Source: Desulfobacterales bacterium (GTDB lineage Bacteria; Desulfobacterota; Desulfobacteria; Desulfobacterales; UBA2156). Taken from it: DNA of 60,857 nucleotides. The stretch's first letter is position 1; the number at the start of each line of letters is the position of its first letter. Below, in pieces: positions 33,266 to 51,038 of the stretch. The notes under the pieces were generated by a model, which made no database searches, was not told the origin of the DNA, and saw only the letters and a program-made list of their open reading frames with translations. The position numbers and the translations under genes were made by a program. The stretch lies in contig JALVQN010000217.1 in NCBI GenBank assembly GCA_027025555.1, forward strand, positions 1-60,857, given 5' to 3'.

Positions 33266-35191
33266 TCAGGTTACGGAGGTTCCGGGTTTTACAGGTTGAT
33301 CCACGGTGAGCACCACGGGCTTTCCGCCGTCCACGGCGGCAAGCAGCATCCCTTGGGAAAGGACCCCCATGATTTTGGCCGGTTTCAAATTGGCTGCCAG
33401 GACGATCTGTTTCCCGGTAAGGTCTTGCGGTCGGTAATGTTGGGCGATGCCCGCCACAACGGTCCGTTTTTCTCCCATGTCCACCTCCAGTGCCAGCACC
33501 TTTTTGGCGCCGGGAATGGCTTCGGCCTTCAAAATGGTGGCGATGCGAAGGTCCAGTTTCTGGAGGATTTCCAGATCGATTTCGGGCTTGACGGGCTTCA
33601 AGGCTTCCCCATGAGGGGCGGCTTCGGCGCTTTCCGCCCGGGTTTTCTTCCATTCGATTCTCGGAAAAAGGGAGATCACCTTGGGAAGCGGGGTCCCGGG
33701 CCGGATCCTGCTGAAGGACCCCAGCCCATCCAGTTCAAAAAAGCGTTCACGGGGGTCCAGTCCCAGATGCTTCTGCATGGTTCGGGCCGTGTCGGGCATG
33801 ACCGGATAGATCAGGGCCGAGACGATGGCGAGCCCTTCCATGAGGTTGGAGAGGACGGCGGCAAGGAGATCGCGCTGGGAGGGCTCCTTTGCCAGCATCC
33901 ATGGGGCCGTGACATCGATATATTTGTTCATCTGGTTGATGAATTCCCACACCGACTCCAGGGCCTTCCGGAAGGCAAAGGATGCCATGGCTTGTTCGAA
34001 TTCAGAGATCGTTTCCCGGGCCGCTTTTTCAAGGTGGAATCCGGCTTTGTCCCTGGCCCCAGGAGCGGTTTCCGGGACGCGTCCCTTGAAGTATTTGTGG
34101 GTCATGGTGAGCGTTCTCGAAAAGAGGTTGCCCAGGTCGTTGGCCAGATCGGAATTGATGCGCGCCACCAGGGCTTCTTCGGAAAAGCTGGCATCGAGTC
34201 CGAAGACCATTTCGCGCATCAAAAAGTAGCGGCAGGCATCCAGGCCGTAAGACTGGATGAGCACCAGGGGATCCACCACGTTCTTCAGGCTTTTGGACAT
34301 TTTACTCTTGTCCACGTTCCAGTATCCATGGACATTGAGATGCTGATAGACCGGAATCCCGGCCGCCTTGAGCATGGTGGGCCAATAGATGCCGTGCGGC
34401 TTCAGGATATCCTTGGCAACGATGTGCTGGGCATGGGGCCAGAATTTCAAGAAGCGTTCGCCGGTTGGATATCCCAGGGCGGAGACATAGTTTAAAAGGG
34501 CATCGAACCACACATAGGTCACGAACCGGTCGTCAAAGGGCAGGGGGATGCCCCATTCCAACCGGGACTTGGGACGGGAGATGCAGAGATCTTCCAGGGG
34601 GTCTTTCAGGAACGCCAAGACCTCGTTCCGGTACCGGGACGGCCGGATAAAATCGGGGTGGGATTGAACATGGTCGATGAGCCATTCCTGGTACTTGCTC
34701 ATTTTGAAAAAATAGTTGGCTTCCTTGATCCTTTCGGGTTCTGTTTCATGATCGGGGCATTTCCCGTCTTCCAGTTCGTGTTCGGTATAAAAGCGTTCAC
34801 ACCCGAAACAGTAGAGCCCCTCGTATTCACTGAAGTAAATATCCCCGCGGTCGTAGATCTTTTGAAGGACATGCTTCACCACGGCCATGTGCCGGGGTTC
34901 CGTGGTCCGGATGAAATCGTTGTTGCGGACGTTGAGTCTGGGCAAAAGATCCCTGAAAAGGCCGCTGATCCTGTCCACATAGGTCCTGGGATTTTCTCCT
35001 TCTGCCTTGGCGGCCTGGACGACTTTGTCGCCGTGTTCATCCGTTCCGGTGAGCAGAAAGGTCTCTTGCCGCTTCATCTGATGGAACCGGCATAAGACGT
35101 CTGCCACAAGGCTGGTATAGGCATGTCCCAGATGGGGCCGGGCATTCACATAATAGATGGGCGTGGTGATGTAAAAGGGGTTGCGTGTCAA
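33266..35191 (-). CDS. metG: Methionyl-tRNA synthetase with C-terminal tRNA-binding domain
   Basis: FYITTPIYYVN, HLGH, GTDEHG, YVWFDAL, KMSKS, NLKPAK. TTG start at 35191 overlaps the upstream stop codon. Confidence 0.95.
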   Translation of the reverse strand: MTRNPFYITTPIYYVNARPHLGHAYTSLVADVLCRFHQMKRQETFLLTGTDEHGDKVVQAAKAEGENPRTYVDRISGLFRDLLPRLNVRNNDFIRTTEPRHMAVVKHVLQKIYDRGDIYFSEYEGLYCFGCERFYTEHELEDGKCPDHETEPERIKEANYFFKMSKYQEWLIDHVQSHPDFIRPSRYRNEVLAFLKDPLEDLCISRPKSRLEWGIPLPFDDRFVTYVWFDALLNYVSALGYPTGERFLKFWPHAQHIVAKDILKPHGIYWPTMLKAAGIPVYQHLNVHGYWNVDKSKMSKSLKNVVDPLVLIQSYGLDACRYFLMREMVFGLDASFSEEALVARINSDLANDLGNLFSRTLTMTHKYFKGRVPETAPGARDKAGFHLEKAARETISEFEQAMASFAFRKALESVWEFINQMNKYIDVTAPWMLAKEPSQRDLLAAVLSNLMEGLAIVSALIYPVMPDTARTMQKHLGLDPRERFFELDGLGSFSRIRPGTPLPKVISLFPRIEWKKTRAESAEAAPHGEALKPVKPEIDLEILQKLDLRIATILKAEAIPGAKKVLALEVDMGEKRTVVAGIAQHYRPQDLTGKQIVLAANLKPAKIMGVLSQGMLLAAVDGGKPVVLTVDQPVKPGTSVT

Positions 35192-36006
35192 TTTGTCTTT
35201 TCCTTTGTGGGGGGTTCCTGAATTTCGTCTTTTTGGATTTCGACTTCCTGGCCGTCCTCCAGGCGGATGAGCAGGCGGTCGCAAATCACGTTGTGGCGCA
35301 GGACTTTTCCCTTACCGCGATGGGTCTTCACCATCCGACCGGGGGGCGGGAAGGTTTTTTTTAATTCCAGATAGGTGTCGTTCTCATAGGTCAGGCAACA
35401 CATCAATCGGCCGCATTGCCCTGAGATCTTGGTGGGGTTCAAGGAGAGCCCCTGTTCTTTGGCCATCCGAATGGAAATCGGTTCGAACTTTTCGATGAAG
35501 GTAGAGCAGCACAGGGGCCTTCCGCAACGACCGATCCCGCCGCACATCTTGGCCTGGTTGCGTATGCCGACCTGCCGCATTTCCACCCGGATGCCCAGTT
35601 CTTTCACCAGCATTTTCACCAGCTGGCGAAAATCGACACGGCCTTCGGCAGTAAAGAAAAAGGTCAGTTTATTGCCGTCAAAAGTACTCTCCACAGAAAA
35701 CAGGTGCATTGAAAGACCCAGCTTCCGGATACATTCCAGGCAAAAGGCATGGGCCCGTTTTTCCATTTCCCGGTTTCGCTCCACCTGACGGAAATCGTTT
35801 TCCACGGCCAACCGGTAGACCTTCTTCAGGGGCCTCTCCAAGGTCTTCTCATCACAAAGGAAAGGGGCCACCACCACGGTTCCCAACTCGAACCCCTGTT
35901 CCGTTTCCACGATCACGGCATCGCCCTTTTTCAGGACGAAGGCGCCGCAATCGAAGTGATAGATTTTTCCGGCGGGCTTAAACCGGATTCCGACGACTTT
36001 TTTCAT
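35188..36006 (-). CDS. PSP1/RicT (YaaT) domain protein
   Basis: VGIRFK..GKIY, FTAEGRVDFR, GGIGRCGRPLCC, MAKEQ.LSLNPTKISGQCGRLMCCL.YE. Confidence 0.92.
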   Translation of the reverse strand: MKKVVGIRFKPAGKIYHFDCGAFVLKKGDAVIVETEQGFELGTVVVAPFLCDEKTLERPLKKVYRLAVENDFRQVERNREMEKRAHAFCLECIRKLGLSMHLFSVESTFDGNKLTFFFTAEGRVDFRQLVKMLVKELGIRVEMRQVGIRNQAKMCGGIGRCGRPLCCSTFIEKFEPISIRMAKEQGLSLNPTKISGQCGRLMCCLTYENDTYLELKKTFPPPGRMVKTHRGKGKVLRHNVICDRLLIRLEDGQEVEIQKDEIQEPPTKEKTN

Positions 36007-40505: not shown

Positions 40506-42851
40506 TCATGGGGCTTCTTGTTTATCCTCCCCCAAGCTGCCCCCGAAACCCCCCAGACCGAAAAGATGGAGCATCACGGAATAGGTGCGATCTTCGAATT
40601 CGTCCATGTATCGAAAATCGATGGACCAGCACTGGGCCGTATAGATCACGCCGACGCCGCTTTTGATGTCCTCCTTGTCATAGAGGTTGCGCTCGTATTC
40701 CGTAAAGAGCAGCACTTGCGGCATCACGTGGACGGAAAGCCGGACGTAGATGGATTCCTTCCCGTCCGATTTTCCTTCGGCCGAATCCCGTTGATACCGG
40801 TATTCCGCAAAGAGCCTGTCTCCCCGGAAATCCCGCACCCTGCATTTGCCATTATACGACATCCAGTCGTCTTCGTAAACCGACCATTGGGCATTCGCTT
40901 CAAGGGAGAGGATTTCTTTCGGGCGGATTTCCAGGCGCCCCTTGATGTTGGAAAAGGGCTGTTTTTCTTCCTTGTCCTTGTCGGTGGCCTCATAGATGTC
41001 GTAGCTTTGACTGAGGGTGAAGCGCGCGAACTCCCGGTAGGTATACGGTGAGATTTCCCCGTTCGGGCTTTTCCCGGGGGACCTCGAAGTGAAGGTGTTT
41101 GTAATCGAGTAAGTGACTTGATTGATTCTTTTGATCCGGTCGACACCGTCAAAGTGTGGGAATTGATCCTGTTTTTTTTCGGGAAGATAGCGATAGCTTA
41201 CCCTTGGAAGGATGCTGTGTTTGATTTTATCGACGCCCTTTATGCCGACTGTGTAAATGCGATAGAATTCCGTGTTGAGTTTCAGGCCCGTATCATAGAG
41301 ATCCCTGAGATGGGTGCTGTCTCTTTCCTCATCGTTAGTTGCAAACTGGTCGATACTCCAGTAGGTTTCCCGGATCCCGAAAAAGGGTTCCAGATTCAGA
41401 TAGTTTTTGAGTTTTATGGGAAGAAAAAGCTTTGGATAGAAATCCACACGGTGGCCCCGGAGTTCGTCTTTTCTATAGAACCGAACATACTCGGAAGAGA
41501 GGTCGTAATAAAGCGGGGTACCCAGAAACCGTCCCTTTGAAATGTCGTATTCCACAAAGGGAAGGCGATGCAGGGTTGTGTCCAAATCGTCCGGGTCGCT
41601 GTGCCTTTTGAAGATGACGTTGTCGTACCATCGGGCTTCGATGTTCAGGTTGCTTCGGTTCCAACTCCGATTCAGATTCAGGCGGTTCAACCGGGTGGTG
41701 TCCGTGTAGTCATCCACGCCTCTGCCGAAGACGTTTTCGAAATACCGGTCGGTCTCGTCGAACCCATTGTAGCCGCTTTTGAATTCCACCAGATAATCCT
41801 GATCCGAGACAATGTCCAGATCGAGTTTGGCGAAAAAGTCCCAGGGAAGTGCCTGGTCGTGTTTCATCCGGAACCAGTACCGGTCCCGGTTGGGCCTTAA
41901 ATACCGGTCGTCCGGATATCCCCATCGGTCACTGGCGTCGTCGCGTCCGTCGTCCACCTGACGGTCTTTTAGAAAATCCCCCATGAGGGTCCCTTTAGAA
42001 TCGGGACTCAAGACGAATCGGTATTCAAAACCGACCTTTTCCCCCCGTCGATCCATGTGGTCCAGGTAGAAGGTGGCATCCGAACTCTCGTTGATGGCCC
42101 AGAAATAGGGTTGTTCATACTGCGTTCCCCGCCGGTCCGAGACCCCCAGCCGGGGCGGAAGGAATCCGGACTGGCGCTTGGTCTTGGCGGGAAAGATGAA
42201 GTAGGGGGTATAAAGGACCGGGACCTTTTTCAGCCAGAGTGTGCTGTGGGAGGCCACGCCGTATCCATCCAGCGTGACGGAAACGTTGTGTGCCGTAATT
42301 TTCCAGGCCGGATTTTCCCCGTCACAGGTGGAGAGACTGGCGGATCGGATGCGGTAGGTCTTTTTCCCGGTCTTTTGGATTTTATCCCCCCGGATGTGGA
42401 AATGGCTTTGCTTTAGAAATACCTTGCCGTGATAGGCGGTTCCGGTTTCCTCCTTCAGGTTTACCCGGATACGATCGCCGGTGAGGATGTCCTCCCCGGC
42501 GGTCAAGACCGCGTGTCCGATGGCCACGGCCTGGCCGGTTTTATGGTTGAGCTGAACAAAATCGGCGGAAATCCGGGTATCCTCCTTGAAAATGACGACA
42601 TTTCCGGCGGCCACGTAATGGTCTGCTTTTTGATCGTAAAAGAGGGAATCGGCGCTGATCTGCCAGAAAGATGCCGTGTCTGCAGCGCCGGATGGGAAGG
42701 CTTTTCCCAAAGGACTTGCGGCCTGGGCCAACCAGGCGTCGGCCGCCCCGAAACAGGCGAAAAGGGCGACGAAAAGAAAGGGCTTCGCTAGAATCCCCAA
42801 CGACCCGGAAAGGCATCTGGAAAAAAAATGATGGAGGTCTTTTGCGGGCAT
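40506..42851 (-). CDS. lptD: LPS-assembly protein LptD
   Basis: ISAD..YDQ..A.GNV, STCD..PAWKI.A, VPVLYTPY, RQSGFL.P, PYFWAI, beta-barrel C-terminus ending ..QCWS... Start approximate; the ORF-track extension to 43880 is antisense to surE. Confidence 0.88.
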   Translation of the reverse strand: MPAKDLHHFFSRCLSGSLGILAKPFLFVALFACFGAADAWLAQAASPLGKAFPSGAADTASFWQISADSLFYDQKADHYVAAGNVVIFKEDTRISADFVQLNHKTGQAVAIGHAVLTAGEDILTGDRIRVNLKEETGTAYHGKVFLKQSHFHIRGDKIQKTGKKTYRIRSASLSTCDGENPAWKITAHNVSVTLDGYGVASHSTLWLKKVPVLYTPYFIFPAKTKRQSGFLPPRLGVSDRRGTQYEQPYFWAINESSDATFYLDHMDRRGEKVGFEYRFVLSPDSKGTLMGDFLKDRQVDDGRDDASDRWGYPDDRYLRPNRDRYWFRMKHDQALPWDFFAKLDLDIVSDQDYLVEFKSGYNGFDETDRYFENVFGRGVDDYTDTTRLNRLNLNRSWNRSNLNIEARWYDNVIFKRHSDPDDLDTTLHRLPFVEYDISKGRFLGTPLYYDLSSEYVRFYRKDELRGHRVDFYPKLFLPIKLKNYLNLEPFFGIRETYWSIDQFATNDEERDSTHLRDLYDTGLKLNTEFYRIYTVGIKGVDKIKHSILPRVSYRYLPEKKQDQFPHFDGVDRIKRINQVTYSITNTFTSRSPGKSPNGEISPYTYREFARFTLSQSYDIYEATDKDKEEKQPFSNIKGRLEIRPKEILSLEANAQWSVYEDDWMSYNGKCRVRDFRGDRLFAEYRYQRDSAEGKSDGKESIYVRLSVHVMPQVLLFTEYERNLYDKEDIKSGVGVIYTAQCWSIDFRYMDEFEDRTYSVMLHLFGLGGFGGSLGEDKQEAP

Positions 42852-42936
42852 AGGCAATCGCTTGGACGACTTTGGGCGGATCCAGGCGCTTCCCAAAATC
42901 TTACCGGAGGCCGCGGCGCATCGGTGGATAAGTTTC

Positions 42937-42965
42937 TTGAACACCCATAAGGTTTTATGTATAAA
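42937..42965 (+). promoter_or_regulatory. Putative sigma70 promoter for the surE operon
   Basis: TTGAAC-N17-TATAAA. Confidence 0.5.
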
Positions 42966-43094
42966 TCCGACTCGTCGCCAAAAGTCAACATGAAGTTGAT
43001 CGCACCTGTTCAGCCGCAAAGGCGCCTCTGTGGGGTGCTCAAGAGACACGCAGTGCGCTTTTGGGTAAGGACACAACAGACGGGACCCAAGTCC

Positions 43095-43871
43095 ATGAAT
43101 ATCCTCTTGACCAATGACGACGGGATCCATGCACCGGGCATCCAGGCCCTTTATCGCCGTTTTGCGGTCCAGCATGCCGTGACCCTTGTTGCCCCGGACC
43201 GCCAGCGCAGTGCCGTGGGCCATTCCATCACGTTGCACAAGCCGATTCGATGTGATCGGGTGCCCCTTGACGGAGGCGGCCGGGGATACGCCGTAAGCGG
43301 TACCCCGGCCGACTGCGTCAAGCTGGCGGTCCACGAGCTCATGGAGGGCGTGCCGGACCTGGTCCTTTCCGGGATCAACCCCGGGGCAAATGTCGGTTTT
43401 AATGTGAACTATTCGGGAACGGTCTGTGCCGCCAAGGAGGCGGGGTATTACGGCATTCCCGCCATTGCGGTGTCCCACTTGGGGGCCGAAAGCCGGTTCC
43501 TTGAGGATGCCGCGGCATTTGTGGAGCGGGTGGCGGCGAGGATGTTCGGATCTCCCCTGCCCAAAGGATGCATTTTGAATCTCAATATCCCCGATGGCCC
43601 TTTTGAAAAAATTCCCGGGGTTCGGATCACCCGGCTGGAGACTTCCGTCTTTGAGGAGCGCTTCGAACGCCGGGTGGATCCCAGGAACCGGATCTATTAC
43701 TGGCAAGGGTGTGAACGCCACCGGGCCTTCAGCGGACCGGACACGGACGCGGCGGTCCTGAACAGCGGTTTCATCTCCCTCACCCCCCTTCGATGGGATC
43801 ATACGGAACTCCGGGTCCTGGAGGACATGAAGAGGTGGGCCTTGAACCCCCTGGGTGGCCATGGAAGATAA
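43095..43871 (+). CDS. surE: 5'/3'-nucleotidase SurE
   Basis: MNILLTNDDG, VAPD..RSAVGHS, GTPADCV, SGINPGAN, YSGTV. Confidence 0.95.
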   Translation: MNILLTNDDGIHAPGIQALYRRFAVQHAVTLVAPDRQRSAVGHSITLHKPIRCDRVPLDGGGRGYAVSGTPADCVKLAVHELMEGVPDLVLSGINPGANVGFNVNYSGTVCAAKEAGYYGIPAIAVSHLGAESRFLEDAAAFVERVAARMFGSPLPKGCILNLNIPDGPFEKIPGVRITRLETSVFEERFERRVDPRNRIYYWQGCERHRAFSGPDTDAAVLNSGFISLTPLRWDHTELRVLEDMKRWALNPLGGHGR

Positions 43872-44826
43872 GCGCTTCATGAAGCACCGGTTTGCAGTGG
43901 ACCTGAAGATCGGGGAGACCGTCGACGATGTCTTTTCGGTCTCCGAGAAGTCTTTGGGGAAGAAGAGGGACGGTGAGAGTTATCTCACCATGGTTCTGGG
44001 AGACCGATCCGGCAGCATCCGGGCCGTCATGTGGGAAGGTGCGGATCGCACCGCTTCTAAGATCCGGGACAGCGCATTCGTCCGGGTGAAGGGGTCGGTT
44101 TCGGAATATCAGGGACGACTCCAGGTGGTGGTGAAGGAGGCCATCCCTTTCCCGGAGAGCGAGATCGATCCGGAAGCCTTTCTTCCCAAGACCCCCCGGA
44201 ACATTGAAAGGATGTTTGCGCGCCTGGTGGAGATCGCCGACACCTTTCAAGACACCCCTTTGAAACGGCTCTTGACGGCTTTTTTCAGCGATGCGGACCT
44301 GATGGCCAAATTCAAGAGGGCGCCTGCGGCAAAGCGGATGCATCACGCCTATGTGGGGGGACTCTTGGAACATACGCTTTCCATGACCCTTCTCGCTGCC
44401 GCCGTTGCCGGGCACTACAGCGGTATCGATCGCGATCTCCTCTTGGCAGGCGCCGTTTTACATGATATCGGTAAAACCGAAGAATTTGTCTATCACCATG
44501 TGATCGACTATTCCAGCCGGGGCCGCCTGTTGGGGCACATCGTCATCGGCATGGAGATGATCGAGGCGAAGATACAGACGGTCAAGGGCTTTCCGGAGGA
44601 ACGGGCGGTTTTGTTGAAACATCTGGTGCTCAGCCATCATGGCAGCCGGGAATACGGGTCTCCGGAAGTCCCCAAAACCGTGGAGGCGGTGTTGCTTCAT
44701 TACATCGATGAAATCGATTCCAAGGTAAACGGCATTCGGGACTTCATCGAAGCGGAGGCGCCTGGTGAGGAATGGACGTCCTTTCACAGAATCCTGGGGC
44801 GGCAATTTTACCGGAAAAAGAGCTGA
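43861..44826 (+). CDS. yhaM: YhaM-like 3'-5' exoribonuclease (OB fold + HD domain)
   Basis: N-terminal OB fold (D.SG.I.A..W), PAAK.MHHAY.GGLLEHT, LHDIGK, GHI, SHHG..EYGSP. Confidence 0.87.
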   Translation: MEDKRFMKHRFAVDLKIGETVDDVFSVSEKSLGKKRDGESYLTMVLGDRSGSIRAVMWEGADRTASKIRDSAFVRVKGSVSEYQGRLQVVVKEAIPFPESEIDPEAFLPKTPRNIERMFARLVEIADTFQDTPLKRLLTAFFSDADLMAKFKRAPAAKRMHHAYVGGLLEHTLSMTLLAAAVAGHYSGIDRDLLLAGAVLHDIGKTEEFVYHHVIDYSSRGRLLGHIVIGMEMIEAKIQTVKGFPEERAVLLKHLVLSHHGSREYGSPEVPKTVEAVLLHYIDEIDSKVNGIRDFIEAEAPGEEWTSFHRILGRQFYRKKS

Positions 44827-44921
44827 AATGGAACAAAGGCCCGGCCCTCCCGGCATCCAGGCCGTCGTCTGAAACCGGTTTTCCCCTGACCCCCCCGACA
44901 CCAAAGGCATCCGGCTAAAAC

Positions 44922-45581
44922 ATGTTCATTACCTTTGAAGGCATCGAAGGCTCCGGAAAAACAACCCAGATCGAGCGGGCGGCGGCCCATATCCGGGCCT
45001 CGGGTCGTCCATGTGTCGTGACACGGGAACCCGGCGGAACGGAAATCGGTTTAAAAATCCGGGAGATCTTGCTGGATCGCAAACACACCGGGCTGGATGC
45101 GGATGCGGAACTGATGCTCTATATGGCGGATCGCATCCAGCATGTCAAAACGGTCATCCTTCCGGCTTTGGATCGAAAAAAGATCGTTTTGTGCGACCGG
45201 TTCCTGGATGCCACCCTCGCCTATCAGGGATATGGGAGGGGGCTGGACATTTCTTTCATCCGGAAGCTGCACCGGACGACCGTCGGCGGTATTGAACCGG
45301 ACCTGACGCTCCTTTTGGATTTGCCGGTGGAAAAAGGACTGGGCCGAGCTTGGGAAAGGATTAAAAAAGCGGAAAACGCCGGCGGGGAAAGCCGCTTTGA
45401 GGAAGAATCCCTGGTGTTCCATGAACGGGTCAGGAAGGGATACCTGGCGTTGGCCCGGGCCAACGTCGGCCGGATCCGGGTCATCGATGCGGCAAAGGAT
45501 ATGGAAACGATCCACCGGGAAGTGATTCAAATCGTATCTGCCGCGCTCGGGGTTGAGAAAAAGGTTCCGGCGCGGTTCTAG
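44922..45581 (+). CDS. tmk: Thymidylate kinase
   Basis: FITFEGIEGSGKTTQ, TREPGG, CDRF, AYQG. Confidence 0.95.
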   Translation: MFITFEGIEGSGKTTQIERAAAHIRASGRPCVVTREPGGTEIGLKIREILLDRKHTGLDADAELMLYMADRIQHVKTVILPALDRKKIVLCDRFLDATLAYQGYGRGLDISFIRKLHRTTVGGIEPDLTLLLDLPVEKGLGRAWERIKKAENAGGESRFEEESLVFHERVRKGYLALARANVGRIRVIDAAKDMETIHREVIQIVSAALGVEKKVPARF

Positions 45582-45662
45582 ACGCTGTTTTACAACCCTT
45601 TGGAGACGGAAGTGTCGGAACCGGACCAAATCCCCGGGACCGGGTGAAGGAGTCGCAAACGG

Positions 45663-47942
45663 ATGAATCGATCGATTCTGGATGCCATTGGCAACACGCC
45701 CCTTGTGGAGATTCGGAAGTTGAATCCCAATTCCAGGGTGAAGATTTTTGCAAAACTGGAATCCTTCAACCCCGGCGGCTCGGTGAAGGACCGACCCGCC
45801 CTTTACATGATCGAAGCCGGAGAACGCAGCGGCCTCCTGACGCCTGAAAAGACCGTGATTGAAGCCACCAGCGGCAATACGGGGATCGGTTTGGCCCTGG
45901 TATGTTCGGTGAAAGGGTACCGGCTCCTGTTGATCATGTCGGAGGCGGTGAGTGAGGAGCGGAGGAAGATCCTGAAGGCCCGGGGAGCAGAGATCCACTT
46001 GACGCCGGGCCACCTGGGCACGGACGGTGCCATAGAGGAGGCCTATCGATTGTCCCGGGAAAACCCGGGCCGGTATTTCATGCCGGATCAGTTCAACAAT
46101 GAAGCCAACTGGCAGGCCCATTACCACAGTACCGCCCGGGAAATCTGGGAACAGACCCGCGGCCGGGTCACCGCTGTCGTGGCGACCCTCGGGACCTCCG
46201 GGACCCTCATGGGTGTATCGAGGCGGATGAAGCAATACAATCCAGCCGTCCGGATCATCGGCGTGGAACCCTACCTGGGACACAAAATCCAGGGGCTTAA
46301 AAACATGAAAGAGGCTTACCGGCCTGAAATCTTCGACAAGGGCCGTTTGGACATCAAGATCAACATCGAAGACGAGGAAGCCTTCGAAATGGCCCGCCGG
46401 CTGGCCAAGGAGGAGGGGATCTTTGCAGGCATGAGCAGCGGTGCGGCCATGGCCATCGCCTGCAAGGAAGCCGCGCTCATGAAAGAGGGGGTCATGGTGG
46501 TGATTCTCCCGGACGGCGGGGAACGGTACCTCAGCACCACGCTCTTTGCAGTGAAAGAGAAGGTGGACTTGAGGCTTTTCAACAGCATGACCCGGAGAAA
46601 AGAGACATTCAAGCCCCTGGTGCCCGGAACCGCCACGGTGTATACCTGCGGTCCCACCGCCCATGACCGAATGGAGGTCGGAGAATGCCGTCGGTTCGTT
46701 TTTTCCGACCTGCTCTGCCGGTATCTCCGATATCGAGGCTATGCGGTCCATCATGTGGTGAACATCACCGATTACGATGATAAGACATTGGCAGGATCGG
46801 AATCCGCCAATCTCTCCCTGTCCCAATTCACCGATAAGTATGTGAAATGGTTTCAAAAGGACCTGGAATCCCTGGGCGTCCAACCGGCCGACCGCATTCC
46901 CCGCACAAGCAGGAACCTCCAAGAGATGGTCCAGATCACCCGTGACCTCAAGAAGGCCGGCTATGCCTATGAGAAGTTAAAATCGGTCTATTTCGATATC
47001 TCCCGGATTCCCGATTACGGAAAGTTGTCCGGAATCGATCTCGATAAGATCAAGCTCGGGGCCACCGTGGATCTTGAAGACTATGAAAAGGAGAATCCCC
47101 GGGATTTCACCCTTCTGAAACGCTCGAAGCTTTCCGAACTCAAGCGCGGCATCTTCGTTAAAACCGAATGGGGCAACGTCCGGCCCTCTTGGCACCTTCA
47201 GTGTGCGGCCACGGCCATGAAATTCATGGGGGAGCGCTACGACATCCATGCCAGCTGCCGGGAGTTCATTTTCCCCCACCATGAAAACCATATCGCCATT
47301 GCCGTGGCGTTAAAAGGACACCCCATGGCCCACTACTGGATCCACTGTGAACAGGTCCTGTTGGATGGCAATCGAAAGGCAACAACAAAGGGGGGAATGC
47401 GCCTCGAGACGCTCTTCGAGGAGGGATTCTCGGGTCGTGAAATCCGGTACTGGCTCCTTTCCAACCACTACCGAAAGCCCCTGGTGTTTGTGCGAAAACG
47501 CCTGGAAGAAGCCAGGCGCGCCTTAAAGCGGATCGATGCGTGTATCCTTTCCCTTAAGCGCCTTCGGGGCGGAACGCCCAATCCTGAAACCGATCAGCTG
47601 GTTTATGATATCAAAAATGGATTCACCTCGGCCATGGATGAGGATCTGAATACCCCCGGCGCCTTGGCCTCCCTCTTTGATAAAATCCGGAAGATCAACA
47701 TCGGCATCAAAGAAAAAAGCATCGATGCCACGGGCGCGGAAAAGATCCTGCGTACGTTTCAGGATATTGACGGTGTTTTGAACCTGTTTCGTTTCCCGGG
47801 GCCTACCCAGGACCCGGAAATCCTCGAGCTTATCCGGCAAAGGGAGGCGGCCCGACAGGCGAAAGACTGGGACACGGCGGACCGTATCCGGGACCGGCTT
47901 CGGTCCATGGGGGTTGAGGTGCGGGACACTCCAATCCGCTGA
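45663..47942 (+). CDS. Fusion of cysteine synthase (CysK/CysM-like, aa ~1-297) and a cysteinyl-tRNA synthetase-like region with degenerate ATP motifs
   Basis: N-terminal: IGNTPLV, NPGGSVKDR (PLP Lys42), ATSGNTG, GTSGT, DGGERYLS. C-terminal: FNSMTR, CGPT, NITDYDDK, RPSWHLQC, FPHHEN, DLNT, KDW..AD.IRD.L. HIGH reads EVGE and KMSKS reads KATTK. Confidence 0.9.
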   Translation: MNRSILDAIGNTPLVEIRKLNPNSRVKIFAKLESFNPGGSVKDRPALYMIEAGERSGLLTPEKTVIEATSGNTGIGLALVCSVKGYRLLLIMSEAVSEERRKILKARGAEIHLTPGHLGTDGAIEEAYRLSRENPGRYFMPDQFNNEANWQAHYHSTAREIWEQTRGRVTAVVATLGTSGTLMGVSRRMKQYNPAVRIIGVEPYLGHKIQGLKNMKEAYRPEIFDKGRLDIKINIEDEEAFEMARRLAKEEGIFAGMSSGAAMAIACKEAALMKEGVMVVILPDGGERYLSTTLFAVKEKVDLRLFNSMTRRKETFKPLVPGTATVYTCGPTAHDRMEVGECRRFVFSDLLCRYLRYRGYAVHHVVNITDYDDKTLAGSESANLSLSQFTDKYVKWFQKDLESLGVQPADRIPRTSRNLQEMVQITRDLKKAGYAYEKLKSVYFDISRIPDYGKLSGIDLDKIKLGATVDLEDYEKENPRDFTLLKRSKLSELKRGIFVKTEWGNVRPSWHLQCAATAMKFMGERYDIHASCREFIFPHHENHIAIAVALKGHPMAHYWIHCEQVLLDGNRKATTKGGMRLETLFEEGFSGREIRYWLLSNHYRKPLVFVRKRLEEARRALKRIDACILSLKRLRGGTPNPETDQLVYDIKNGFTSAMDEDLNTPGALASLFDKIRKINIGIKEKSIDATGAEKILRTFQDIDGVLNLFRFPGPTQDPEILELIRQREAARQAKDWDTADRIRDRLRSMGVEVRDTPIR

Positions 47943-48003: not shown

Positions 48004-48993
48004 ATGGAAGCGATATATTTCCCCCATACCGTGATTCCGGAACCTGTTTTGGCCAACCTTGAACATTTGGTCGATTCGGTGGAGGTTCTTCAGCCGTGCC
48101 GCCGCGAGGTTCCTGAATTCATGGCCGCATACGCGGCAAAGGGATTTTTATCCATATATACAGTGATGGCGGACCATAAGGCGCGACTGGAAGCAGCCCT
48201 TCAGGGCTTTGAAGCCTTTGCACAGACGGCCGGACCCGGGGGCGATCTGGTGACCCGATTTGTTGCCCTGAGCAAGGGCTCCCCTGCCCCCGACGATGAA
48301 AGGGTGGCCTCCCAGATCGTCTCCGCCATGAAAAGAGGCCGTGCCGGAACAAGACGCCCGCCGGAAGATCCGGCCTTCGAAGCGGCCCTTTTCCTTTTCA
48401 TGGCCCAAACCTACGACCTCCGCAACATGGAGGTTCAGAAGGATTTGAAGTCCGCTGGCGACACCCAAAAAAAGCTCTTTCAAAGCCTCACGGGGGAGGT
48501 CCCCATGGACGAGAAGACCGACTTTCCCGGCCATGACGCCCCGGACGATTACATGCCCAGGCAACGGCTCGCGGCCTGGTCCAATTTGTTCTTCAACAGG
48601 CGTGCCCTTCAAGGCATGGATAAAGGCCCTGTCTGGATGACGCACAGCCGGCCGGTGGTGGAACACCTCCTGGAAGAGGCGCCGTTTTCCGTGCAGACGG
48701 TGCATCTTGAGGCGACCCCGGGCGCCCCGGTTCCGGAAGGGAGACAGGATCCCTGGAAAGCCGCCTTCCAGGAAGCCCTGTCAAGGGCATGGGAAGATCC
48801 CGGCTTTTGCCTTGACGATCCCCTTGTGGAAGCGTCGATTCCCTTTGGAGGCCCCGCACCCTTTGCGGCCACCGTCCATGCCGTTCACCAGGCCCCTGCG
48901 GCCCTTTTTGGGCGCCGGCTCGACGGTTCCCTCATCCCCGAAGGCCAAGAGGCCTTGGACGGCAAAACATTGTTGGTTTGCTTGGATCCATAA
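48004..48993 (+). CDS. Hypothetical protein
   Basis: ~329-aa ORF (MEAIYFPHT...) with GAGG upstream. It fills the gap between the fusion gene and the ferredoxin. Confidence 0.65.
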   Translation: MEAIYFPHTVIPEPVLANLEHLVDSVEVLQPCRREVPEFMAAYAAKGFLSIYTVMADHKARLEAALQGFEAFAQTAGPGGDLVTRFVALSKGSPAPDDERVASQIVSAMKRGRAGTRRPPEDPAFEAALFLFMAQTYDLRNMEVQKDLKSAGDTQKKLFQSLTGEVPMDEKTDFPGHDAPDDYMPRQRLAAWSNLFFNRRALQGMDKGPVWMTHSRPVVEHLLEEAPFSVQTVHLEATPGAPVPEGRQDPWKAAFQEALSRAWEDPGFCLDDPLVEASIPFGGPAPFAATVHAVHQAPAALFGRRLDGSLIPEGQEALDGKTLLVCLDP

Positions 48994-49376: not shown

Positions 49377-49504
49377 AAAGCGTTCCGGATACCTCCGGAT
49401 TTTCTCGGGGGATATCCCGTTTCCCCGTCCCGCCCCATTCCCCGCATGGATGGCCTGAAAGGGATGCCATGCCCCCTTTCCCTTTATCGCGTAAGCTGTT
49501 TTGG

Positions 49505-50041
49505 ATGAAGCAGGGGTATGCCTTCATTTTTCAGACACGCTTTGGATATTCTGCGGTCTTGTACCGGGAAAGTCCCTTCGCCGTTTTCAGGACCTTCCTT
49601 CCACGGCAGACGCTTTCCGGTCTCATGGAGGCCCTGGACGCTTCCGGCGGCCCGTTTCGGGAGGGCGCCCATGCGCATGCACGCACGCTGTCCCGGTCCA
49701 TCGTCGATTATTTCAAGGGCCTGATCCCTGAAATGGAGTGGCCGCCATGGTCCTGGTTGGATCTTGCCGGACTGACCCCGCTCCAGCGGTCTGTGCTCCG
49801 GGAAACCGCAAAGATACCCTATGGTAAACAAAGGAGCTACCGGGACATCGCCTGCGCCATCGGTCGGCCGAGGGCCTGCCGGTTCGTGGGATCCACCCTG
49901 GCCAAAAATCCCTTCCCGCTCCTGATTCCCTGTCACCGGGTCATCCGGAGTGACGGCACCCCGGGTCAATTCGGGGGCGGAACCCCCCTCAAACAGGCCC
50001 TCCTTGATCTGGAGGCAAGAAACCCGAGGTGTCGGGCTTGA
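49505..50041 (+). CDS. ogt: Methylated-DNA-protein-cysteine methyltransferase
   Basis: IPYG..SY..IA, NP.PLLIPCHRVI, K..LL..E. Confidence 0.88.
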   Translation: MKQGYAFIFQTRFGYSAVLYRESPFAVFRTFLPRQTLSGLMEALDASGGPFREGAHAHARTLSRSIVDYFKGLIPEMEWPPWSWLDLAGLTPLQRSVLRETAKIPYGKQRSYRDIACAIGRPRACRFVGSTLAKNPFPLLIPCHRVIRSDGTPGQFGGGTPLKQALLDLEARNPRCRA

Positions 50042-51038
50042 AGTGGTCCCATCCCGAGGGGAAAACCGGCAAAATGCGGCCCGAAGCGTCGGTGATCTCC
50101 AGCTTTTTAGACGGTGTGATCCGCCCGATGGCAAAAAGGGGGCGATGAAAGGTTTTTTCGAAGGCGGCCAGGACGCGCTTTTCCGCTTCGGGCGGTACGG
50201 TCATTAAAAGGACATAGTCCTCGCCGCCGGAAAGCGCGTAATCCAGCGGGTCCCCGGAAAACCGCGCGCAGAAGCTTTTGAGTGCCGGAGAGACGGGGAT
50301 TTTCGTTGCATCGAGAAGGGCCCCGACATTGCTTGATCTCAGGATATGACCCAGGTCTGAACTCAGGCCGTCGCTGACATCGATGGCGGCGTGAACGGCC
50401 CCCAGCGTTGCCAGAAACCGGCCTTCTTCTACATGGGGCCGCGGTTTCAGGTGGGCGTTGAGCAGTTTCTCGAGTGCCGGCGTATCGGGCGGGATGTCCT
50501 CCAGGATGAGATGCAGTCCGGCACGGCTGTCCCCCAGAAAGCCCGTGGAGAAAATCACATCACCGATTTGTGCGGTGTGGCGGAAAAGGATTTCCTCGGC
50601 CGGCATGGTGCCCAGGACCATGATGTTGAGGATGAGATCGGTTTTCGATGCCGTGGTATCCCCGCCCAGAATGTTGACCCGATGCCGGGCGGCAAGATGC
50701 TTCATCCCCGCGTAGAGCCCGTCCAGATAGTCGAGGGTGCAGTCTTCCGGAATTGCGATGCTGATAAAGGCTTCCCTGGGCTCTCCGCCCATGGCGGCGA
50801 TGTCACTCAAGTTCACGGCCAGGGCCTTGTATCCCAGGTTGAATGCCGAGGTGGCCTTTTTCAGGAAATGGACCCGTTCCACCAGCAAGTCGGTGGTGAC
50901 GAGGGTCGCCCTGTGGGGAGGGACATGGAAGACAGCCGCATCGTCTCCGATGCCTTTGAGGACCGCGTCCTTTCGCACAAGGCACCCTCTCCGGACCCGG
51001 TCGATCCATGCGAACTCACCGATGTCCTTCAGTTTCAA
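49989..51038 (-). CDS. thiL: Thiamine-monophosphate kinase
   Basis: IGEF, GIGDDAA, VNLSDIAAMGG.P, GGDT, DVSDGL, SGGEDY, GWDHF. Confidence 0.95.
   Translation of the reverse strand: MKLKDIGEFAWIDRVRRGCLVRKDAVLKGIGDDAAVFHVPPHRATLVTTDLLVERVHFLKKATSAFNLGYKALAVNLSDIAAMGGEPREAFISIAIPEDCTLDYLDGLYAGMKHLAARHRVNILGGDTTASKTDLILNIMVLGTMPAEEILFRHTAQIGDVIFSTGFLGDSRAGLHLILEDIPPDTPALEKLLNAHLKPRPHVEEGRFLATLGAVHAAIDVSDGLSSDLGHILRSSNVGALLDATKIPVSPALKSFCARFSGDPLDYALSGGEDYVLLMTVPPEAEKRVLAAFEKTFHRPLFAIGRITPSKKLEITDASGRILPVFPSGWDHFKPDTSGFLPPDQGGPV

Follow-up and report, generated by a model that had tools for sequence, protein, structure and literature searches.

A widespread family of cysteine synthases fused to a predicted cysteinyl-tRNA pseudo-synthetase in Desulfobacterales and related genomes

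A stretch of 60,857 nucleotides from a Desulfobacterales bacterium (contig JALVQN010000217.1 of assembly GCA_027025555.1), which we refer to in its entirety as the window, carries at positions 45663..47942 of the forward strand a single unbroken open reading frame (ORF) of 759 amino acids (aa; P0001), in which a pyridoxal phosphate (PLP)-dependent cysteine synthase of the CysM type is joined to a full-length cysteinyl-tRNA synthetase (CysRS) fold. We rate this fusion as a pseudo-synthetase attached to the biosynthesis of its cognate amino acid, widespread and apparently mislabelled in databases. An initial reading of the window, made from the sequence only, had reported the uninterrupted frame, and its coordinates proved correct throughout by ORF reading, by Pfam matches and by alignment to the canonical CysRS of the same genome. 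We tentatively propose, with slightly less than even confidence, that the C-terminal half would bind tRNA-Cys and, in the clade to which the window belongs, probably cysteine too, and that it would thereby couple or regulate the fused synthase; among the roles that the sequence-only reading had listed, such a sensor or coupling function stood last, and it is the one that fits the data best.

The frame is preceded by a Shine-Dalgarno-like AAGGAG (45647..45652, +), which sequence reading places 10 nt 5' of the fusion ATG; a promoter and terminator scan returned no promoter-like sites and terminator-like sites no commoner than in shuffled sequence. All parts of the protein are encoded on the plus strand: a CysM/CysK-type synthase domain (aa 1-296, 45663..46550; Pfam PALP at aa 5-284, 1.2e-73), a short linker (aa 297-302, 46551..46568), a CysRS-like class I catalytic domain comprising the Rossmann fold and the connective peptide (CP) (aa 316-618, 46608..47516; Pfam tRNA-synt_1e, 5.9e-72), a DALR_2 helical domain (aa 654-709, 47622..47789; 8.1e-11), and a CysS_C anticodon-binding domain (aa 717-756, 47811..47930; 5.6e-10). 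An AlphaFold2 (AF2) model built from 45 sequences has a mean predicted local distance difference test (pLDDT) score of 87.5 and a predicted template modelling (pTM) score of 0.76, being low only at aa 297-299, where pLDDT falls below 50 within the linker, at 466-477, and at 571-577; it matches the CysRS structure 8qhp with a TMt score of 0.91 and the E. coli CysRS-tRNA complex 1u0b with a TMt score of 0.78 over 481 columns.

The N-terminal half looks like a working enzyme and is predicted to be an O-acetyl(phospho)serine sulfhydrylase of the CysM type whose catalytic site is intact. Cysteine synthases are characterised by a substrate (Asn) loop, T-S-G-N-T, and a Gly-rich phosphate loop, G-T-x-G-T. 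The two signatures that had been picked out from the sequence, SVKDR with Lys42 and GTSGT, are both present in the fusion. The codon of Lys42, the Schiff-base lysine, lies at 45786..45788 (+), and the residue is Lys in 120 of 120 close homologues and in all 45 diverse fusions of our alignment A3, the set that underlies every count of diverse fusions given here; across these 45, residues K42, S70, G71, N72, T73, Q143, G177, T178, G180, T181 and S258 are invariant. The half scores 364.2 against the cysKM subfamily model TIGR01136, above its cut-off of 344.15, while of the two equivalog models cysM gives the better match, 367.8 against a cut-off of 394.2, with cysK at 316.8 against 350.95. It thus shares with CysM, or O-acetylserine sulfhydrylase B (OASS-B), the fold (TMt 0.96 between the AF2 model and 2jc3 and 2bhs) and the PLP and substrate-loop residues, but it differs in staying below the cysM equivalog cut-off and in having a 460-aa C-terminal pseudo-synthetase added. 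Among fused relatives, identity to the window fusion by BLAST is 60-78% in the PALP half and 35-58% in the CysRS-like half.

The C-terminal half (aa 297-757) is 33% identical by BLASTP to the canonical CysRS encoded in the same genome, and alignment to that enzyme confirms the motif states that had been read at the outset: the HIGH position is occupied by EVGE (aa 338-341, 46674..46685, +), DIHGGG is replaced by DIHASC (47241..47258, +), and the KMSKS position, from aa 572, reads KATTK (47376..47390, +) within the loop of low pLDDT at aa 571-577, which is variable in the clade. By these substitutions the window fusion is predicted to lack the HIGH, GGG and KMSKS elements required for Cys-AMP formation, and its C-terminal half scores 338.1 against the cysS equivalog model TIGR00435, just under the cut-off of 340. 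The middle Gly of GGG is Ser or Ala in 43 of the 45 diverse fusions, as against Gly in 27 of 27 canonical rows. Two of the window's substitutions are local, since His543 occurs in 5 and Glu338 in 1 of the 120 close homologues, which confines them to the window's small sub-branch (with P0002-P0004, 77-79% identical), where the first His of HIGH is gone and His543 is held in common; the consensus of the wider clade at these sites is H-x-G-E, more precisely H[VL]GE, and ENE.

The thiol-binding pocket has fared differently. In E. coli CysRS the zinc/thiol site is formed by C28, C209, H234 and E238, and the window fusion keeps the counterparts of the first three as C329, C514 and H539, the fourth ligand position being His. 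Cys329, the counterpart of Cys28, lies in CGPT (codon 46647..46649, +) and is Cys in 120 of 120 close homologues and in 41 of the 45 fusions; by alignment, Cys514 closes the motif WHLQC (aa 510-514, 47190..47204, +), and His539 is retained in FPHHENH (aa 537-543, 47271..47291, +), in which the Glu238 counterpart of the canonical HHENE is His. The sequence-only reading, which held the thiol/Zn site to be largely kept, is right as far as the window fusion goes (CGPT Cys329, WHLQC, FPHH), although the statement does not extend to the family, both zinc cysteines being gone in three fusions of family f50.

The family itself is large. A search of a 5.8-billion-protein collection returned 119 further full-length proteins of 758-773 aa, 65-79% identical to the window fusion and all of PALP plus tRNA-synt_1e architecture; where public names are given they read cysteine--tRNA ligase, and the sources are metagenome-assembled genomes of Deltaproteobacteria or Desulfobacterales. 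We also surveyed a sample of 301 genomes of the phylum, of which 118 have a CysRS-like match in an open frame of at least 629 aa (440 aa in G286); with G080 and G294 added, a hand count among the matches listed gives about 120 fusion-bearing genomes, and the PALP domain was confirmed by BLAST in 33 distinct fused ORFs (35 rows, two of them duplicate loci) out of these roughly 120. Among them are the single-contig genomes G264, G112, G039, G017, G030, G106 and G257. The fused architecture is absent from solved structures, and a search of genome contigs with the CysRS-like half gave four distant matches of 32-41% identity and no close relatives. In two genomes, G170 (a frame of 1403 aa) and G191 (at least 1072 aa), extra domains suggested by the long frames were considered and rejected, the additional length being GC-rich, low-complexity read-through.

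Charging of tRNA-Cys for translation is predicted to fall to a separate enzyme. The sequence-only reading had proposed looking for a second, canonical cysS, and the host genome (226 contigs, 96.8% complete) has one on contig C174, encoding a CysRS of 483 aa with HIGH, DIHGGG and KMSKS, as well as a cysE-cysK pair on contig C188. Among the matches listed, at least two CysRS-type genes are found in all fusion-bearing genomes except four (66, 79, 62 and 95% complete), and of 13 second copies fetched, 12 carry H-x-G-H together with DIHGGG and KMSKS, the remaining one HIGN with KMAKS. In genome G092 about 3 kb separates the fusion gene from the canonical cysS, both being on one strand of contig C33 (L051). 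A third CysRS-type gene is seen in G279 (L044, C1:3664800-3667000); its product of 475 aa carries HIGN and KMAKS and groups with an HIGN-type clade, not with the HIGH-type enzymes of the phylum. The tRNA complement of the host is ordinary, with one tRNA-Cys (G1:C72, U73, anticodon GCA), one tRNA-Sec, in keeping with the selenocysteine (Sec) use that had been ascribed to the organism, and no odd tRNA-Cys or selC*; no tRNA gene was found in the window.

Loss of the adenylation motifs is graded across the family, as a motif table of 33 fused rows, 13 canonical rows and 23 representatives makes clear. Whether the loss is shared, a check that had been suggested with the original observation, has a divided answer: H-x-G-H is gone in 45 of 45 fusions, but otherwise the loss is uneven, with KM[SA][KR]S kept in 9 of 45 and H-x-G-N present in 6 of 45. 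Fusions that we call type A have HLGN or HLGL, DIHTSG and KMSRS; type B, the clade of the window, has H-x-G-E, PSWH(I/L)QC, DIHTSS and no KMSKS; family f39 has HIGL and KKLSS, and family f26 has PPDLGL and KKANR. Two further proteins show other combinations of such domains: P0133 (768 aa) joins PALP to a CysRS with intact HIGN and KMSKS (390 bits on PF01406), clusters with CysRS of the HIGN type and is perhaps genuinely bifunctional, and P0199 (711 aa) joins a hexapeptide (CysE-like) domain to a full CysRS (456.8 bits).

In a maximum-likelihood tree of 68 CysRS domains (IQ-TREE, quick mode, LG+G4), all 34 fused rows from the phylum fall in one clade (SH-aLRT 99) together with seven representatives, some of them fragments and some apparently not fused. 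The sister group of the fused clade (SH-aLRT 99) is the clade of HIGN-type CysRS that includes P0133, and the fused clade stands apart from the HIGH-type CysRS of the phylum itself, a topology by which the fusions appear as a conserved paralogous family of single origin. Changes at positions kept in canonical enzymes, namely Y334H, R468T, G531S and a four-residue LKRG insertion at 493-496, mark the family, type A included. Because the degenerate states sit on long branches of their own (f50, 0.91; f39, 0.86; and type B), loss of the catalytic residues occurred more than once.

What does run through the whole family is the part of the protein that would read the anticodon. According to the portion of the cited account drawn on here, E. 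coli CysRS contacts the anticodon through R427, W432, D436 and R439 (PMC13449415). Alignment to 1li5 and 1u0b gives their counterparts in the fusion as R731, W736, D740 and R743 (47853..47891, +), which are conserved in 120, 119, 120 and 120 of the 120 close homologues, and which persist in 45 of 45 diverse fusions as R/K, W/F/Y, D and R, even in the three f50 fusions without zinc cysteines. The retention of the anticodon-binding tail, already noticed on first inspection, is therefore borne out, the anticodon head being kept and CysS_C being found by Pfam. Since loss of the ATP motifs is uneven and three fusions have no zinc cysteines, the family-wide constant would be tRNA recognition and not the thiol/Zn site; to judge from the aligned residues, what stays invariant in the 45 fusions is the PLP site, along with the four residues whose E. 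coli CysRS counterparts contact the GCA anticodon.

Conservation and selection point in the same direction, within limits that belong to the comparisons themselves. Mean pairwise identity is lower in fused than in canonical rows in the Rossmann-C segment (0.54 versus 0.71) and in the KMSKS loop (0.34 versus 0.68), and it is similar or slightly higher in the CP insertion (0.53 versus 0.49), the SC-fold (0.46 versus 0.41), the helical bundle (0.30 versus 0.26) and the anticodon-binding domain at the C terminus (0.43 versus 0.44). The drop would thus be confined to the catalytic core and the KMSKS loop, with the other CysRS parts as constrained as in a real CysRS, a comparison that is indicative because the fused and canonical row sets differ in phylogenetic breadth. 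Ratios of nonsynonymous to synonymous substitution (dN/dS; Nei-Gojobori, saturated-dS pairs giving no value) are 0.06-0.16 in both halves for four pairs of family f28; for the window fusion paired with G145 and with G264 they are 0.13 and 0.10 in the PALP half and 0.25 and 0.20 in the CysRS-like half, values that are rough because dS, at 1.26-1.85, is near saturation. A ratio below 1 in the CysRS half, which the sequence-only reading had named as a check, is accordingly found (0.06-0.25 in these pairs), and also in the pair G059-G191 of family f26 (L061, L058), whose halves give 0.54 and 0.58, far above other pairs. Together with the canonical cysS elsewhere in the genome and the spread of the fusion in the phylum, these ratios support the earlier view of a repurposed protein over a decaying one. 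The family is old, and selection on it is purifying.

In the mechanism that we propose, the pseudo-CysRS half would serve as a binding module for tRNA-Cys(GCA); in the window's clade, where the Zn pocket is retained, cysteine or the cysteinyl end of Cys-tRNA-Cys might be bound as well. Through this half the charging state of tRNA-Cys would tune the fused synthase or be physically coupled to it, a logic for which HisZ, the HisRS paralogue that regulates histidine synthesis, and the HisRS-like tRNA sensor in GCN2 offer models. For the other roles that had been entertained for the fusion, namely persulfide or S-sulfocysteine chemistry, deacylation of Cys-tRNA and editing of Cys versus Sec, the present data offer no direct support.

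Several observations weigh against a tRNA-sensing role, beyond the breadth of the row sets, the near-saturated dS values and the raised ratios of the f26 pair given above. We infer tRNA-Cys binding from four conserved residues and overall conservation, and type B rows stop short of the last G..W strand of the anticodon-binding domain, a strand present in canonical and type A rows, whose absence could weaken anticodon binding in the clade of the window. Adenylation may still be within reach of the type A members that have HLGN and KMSRS, so that one function may not be common to the whole family. The pocket of the close homologues, moreover, is altered and yet conserved, with E341 in 115, C342 in 105, R343 and R344 in 120, Q513 in 120 and C562 in 116 of 120, a pattern that hints at a new ligand or chemistry in place of a passive sensor; this remodelling in type B, which brings in the new Cys342 and Cys562, is the chief finding for which a sensor model does not account.

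The gene next to the fusion in the window, which we call c1, bears on two of the alternatives. It encodes 329 aa at 48004..48993 (+), the start, judged from homologues and from an AAGAGG 9-10 nt upstream, being probably the ATG at 48004 and not 47968; its invariant residues include P7, R188 and W192. In a comparison of 21 loci, c1 is the only neighbour conserved beyond local synteny, which comprises tmk, an HD-OB protein, surE and LptD. Of 8 same-order loci examined, the window included, 7 have it directly 3' of the fusion, and in G112 it lies elsewhere; in f28 genomes and in G223 of family f94 it lies directly 5' on the same strand. A c1 profile matches 78 of 301 genomes, and among the matches listed 74 of about 120 fusion-bearing genomes have it, as against 4 of about 181 others (G292, weakly, G058, G071 and G278), a count that overstates the link because related genomes are not independent samples. 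Other CysRS-type genes, in G195, G106 and G294, also have a c1 homologue no more than a few kb away. In G195 the gene in question, about 1.7 kb from the c1 homologue (L065:6842-8998, -), is a 718-aa ORF in which a family 2 glycosyltransferase is fused with a CysRS catalytic domain (PF01406, 336.7 bits), and it may belong to an MshC-like low-molecular-weight thiol system.

The c1 family has no match in Pfam or NCBIfam and no usable match in the ESM Atlas, and its profile, run against a large protein database, finds six proteins, named at most 'hypothetical'. The AF2 model of c1 has a pLDDT of 76.6, with nothing in the Protein Data Bank (PDB) at E <= 0.001 by Foldseek; VIA-align, run wide, gives helical-hairpin matches only (Z <= 6.1, residues 120-195) and barely covers the rest. 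Predictions of a complex between c1 and the CysRS-like half scored 0.02, 0.38 and 0.00 in separate runs and speak neither for nor against pairing; c1 is a candidate partner of the fusion. The remaining neighbours are ordinary: tmk, for thymidylate kinase (44922..45581, +; Pfam), is syntenic within the order and probably unrelated in function, and the flanks (42957..45581, +, and 49469..51038) hold, besides tmk, surE, a protein with OB-fold and HD domains, an Ogt-type methyltransferase and, on the minus strand, a ThiL/AIR-synthase-like gene. A large ORF at 40506..43880 (-) groups with neighbours of 747-835 aa that are syntenic in relatives; from its sequence it is tentatively called LptD here. 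The intact methionyl-tRNA synthetase (MetRS) that had been noted in the window is also there, at 33269..35311 (-), with HLGH and KMSKS.

These neighbourhood data lend some weight to a rather unlikely alternative, in which the CysRS fold would have been kept as a scaffold for oligomerisation, for c1 or another partner, or for an RNA other than tRNA, the anticodon residues being structural. The adjacency of c1 to the fusion in two gene orders, its enrichment in fusion-bearing genomes and its presence near other CysRS-type genes would all suit such a role, but c1 does not adjoin the fusion in most c1-bearing genomes, the co-occurrence is inflated by kinship, and the four conserved positions coincide exactly with the residues that contact bases in the E. 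coli complex.

We consider it unlikely that the fusion carries out tRNA-dependent chemistry, with tRNA-Cys bound by the pseudo-CysRS half and the aminoacyl group on its 3' end processed at the PLP site. Substrates might be, for instance, Ser-, O-acetylseryl- or phosphoseryl-tRNA-Cys, yielding Cys-tRNA-Cys, or Cys-tRNA-Cys itself, yielding a persulfide or selenocysteinyl form, which would make the fusion a fold-type II analogue of SepCysS or SelA. A variant of similarly low probability has the tRNA docking through its anticodon, with the Cys342/Cys562 pocket, and possibly c1, taking part, and with exchange between Cys and Sec. The conserved anticodon head and CP domain are compatible with this chemistry, as are the very short interdomain linker, with low pLDDT only at aa 297-299, and the pocket of the window's clade, remodelled yet conserved with its new cysteines; CysM-type enzymes, besides, accept varied nucleophiles. 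A phosphoseryl-tRNA route of the SepRS/SepCysS type is nevertheless rejected, as the host genome is without SepRS (best TIGR00470 match 23.2 bits against a cut-off of 380.65). Further objections are that the sole tRNA-Cys is ordinary, that the conserved neighbourhood holds no candidate mischarging enzyme, that the PLP-site residues for free substrate are invariant, as in ordinary cysteine synthases, and that Cys-tRNA is already supplied by the canonical cysE-cysK pair and cysS.

A bifunctional enzyme, whose CysRS half would still charge tRNA-Cys, weakly or under special conditions, and would channel newly made cysteine onto it, is quite improbable for the window fusion. Such residual aminoacylation is likelier for type A, which keeps HLGN and KMSRS, and a precedent may exist in P0133; the zinc/thiol pocket retained in the window's clade would also be of use to it. 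In the window fusion, however, all three ATP elements are replaced; KMSKS occurs in 0 of 120 close homologues, in 115 of which Glu takes the place of the final His of HIGH; the drop in conservation is specific to the catalytic parts; a canonical CysRS is encoded in the same genome; and the TIGR00435 cut-off is narrowly missed.

The possibility of an assembly artefact or a decaying pseudogene, to which the fragmented host assembly and the truncated frame of one relative, G016, might lead, is negligible, being refuted by the single-contig genomes, the 119 full-length homologues from many sources, dN/dS below 1 and the many invariant columns in both halves. The G016 copy (L059:1246-3063, +) itself stops early, with an open frame of 704 aa and a CysRS-like part ending at about residue 283 of 463, and may be a pseudogene or a frameshift.

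The public label of cysteine--tRNA ligase or cysteinyl-tRNA synthetase is very probably wrong for the fusion in most lineages, and its correction would touch counts of aminoacyl-tRNA synthetases (aaRSs) as well as metabolic models. At least three lineages (the window's clade, f39 and f50) are degenerate on separate branches, and the gradation within the family, with nearly intact motifs at one end, a lost zinc site at the other and lost ATP motifs in between, offers a natural experiment in the conversion of a synthetase into a binding module. If the proposed coupling to tRNA-Cys is true, the fusion would clearly exemplify in bacteria a class I pseudo-synthetase that, while fused to the synthase of its own amino acid, still recognises its cognate anticodon, and it would provide a direct, testable link at the protein level between tRNA charging and amino-acid supply, a role so far held by T-boxes, HisZ and GCN2. 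If instead tRNA-dependent chemistry is true, amino acids would be transformed on tRNA by a new route of fold type II, perhaps with c1 taking part.

The known paralogues of CysRS provide the nearest comparisons. In the part drawn on here, a 2022 review of aaRS paralogues gives CysRS* and MshC alone for CysRS (PMC9437257), and full-text literature searches aimed at the fusion, covering main texts, returned no description of a PALP-CysRS fusion, although supplementary Figures S14 and S15 of Mukai et al. (NAR 2017, PMC5389517), on CysRS variants, might bear on the matter. CysRS*, likewise a second CysRS-type gene in related delta-proteobacteria, was described in Desulfobacterales in that paper, where the main text, as far as it is used here, places it downstream of selC*/selB*, without an anticodon-binding domain, and proposes that it charges an opal-suppressor tRNA-Cys (PMC5389517). 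The absence of that domain and the position beside selC*/selB* set CysRS* apart from our fusion, in which CysS_C is present and PALP is fused, and which has tmk and c1 as neighbours and no tRNA gene in the window. The mycothiol ligase MshC is, according to the passages relied on here, ATP-dependent and tRNA-independent (PMC2922099, PMC9437257). As a CysRS paralogue with a non-translational role it resembles the C-terminal half of the fusion (TMt 0.85 between the AF2 model and 3c8z), but the fusion is not MshC, scoring 163.4 on TIGR03447 against a cut-off of 485.1. With canonical CysRS (E. coli 1li5 and 1u0b) that half has in common the whole-length fold and, in the window's clade, Cys, Cys and His at the zinc-ligand positions and the anticodon contacts, and it departs from it in the replaced HIGH, GGG and KMSKS, in Y334H, R468T, G531S and the LKRG insertion, and in the C-terminal strand gone in the clade.

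Outside the CysRS lineage, two regulators built on HisRS-like proteins are closest in logic. GCN2 has a HisRS-like pseudo-synthetase domain fused to an effector enzyme and senses tRNA. It is eukaryotic, has a kinase as effector and responds to many uncharged tRNAs, whereas the anticodon contacts of the fusion indicate tRNA-Cys only, and its effector makes the cognate amino acid. HisZ, which is not known to have an anticodon-binding domain, is a class II protein that acts as a separate subunit and binds the amino acid, whereas the fusion is class I, covalently joined and in possession of its anticodon head. In the part of the review used here, HisZ is described as lacking adenylation activity and as mediating allosteric inhibition of histidine synthesis (PMC9437257). 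The likeness is that each is an aaRS paralogue, HisZ without adenylation activity and the fusion without adenylation motifs, physically tied to a biosynthetic enzyme of its own amino acid, and two of the features expected of a regulatory pseudo-synthetase are found in the fusion, as a CysRS paralogue stripped of these motifs and linked covalently, through PALP in one ORF, to cysteine biosynthesis.

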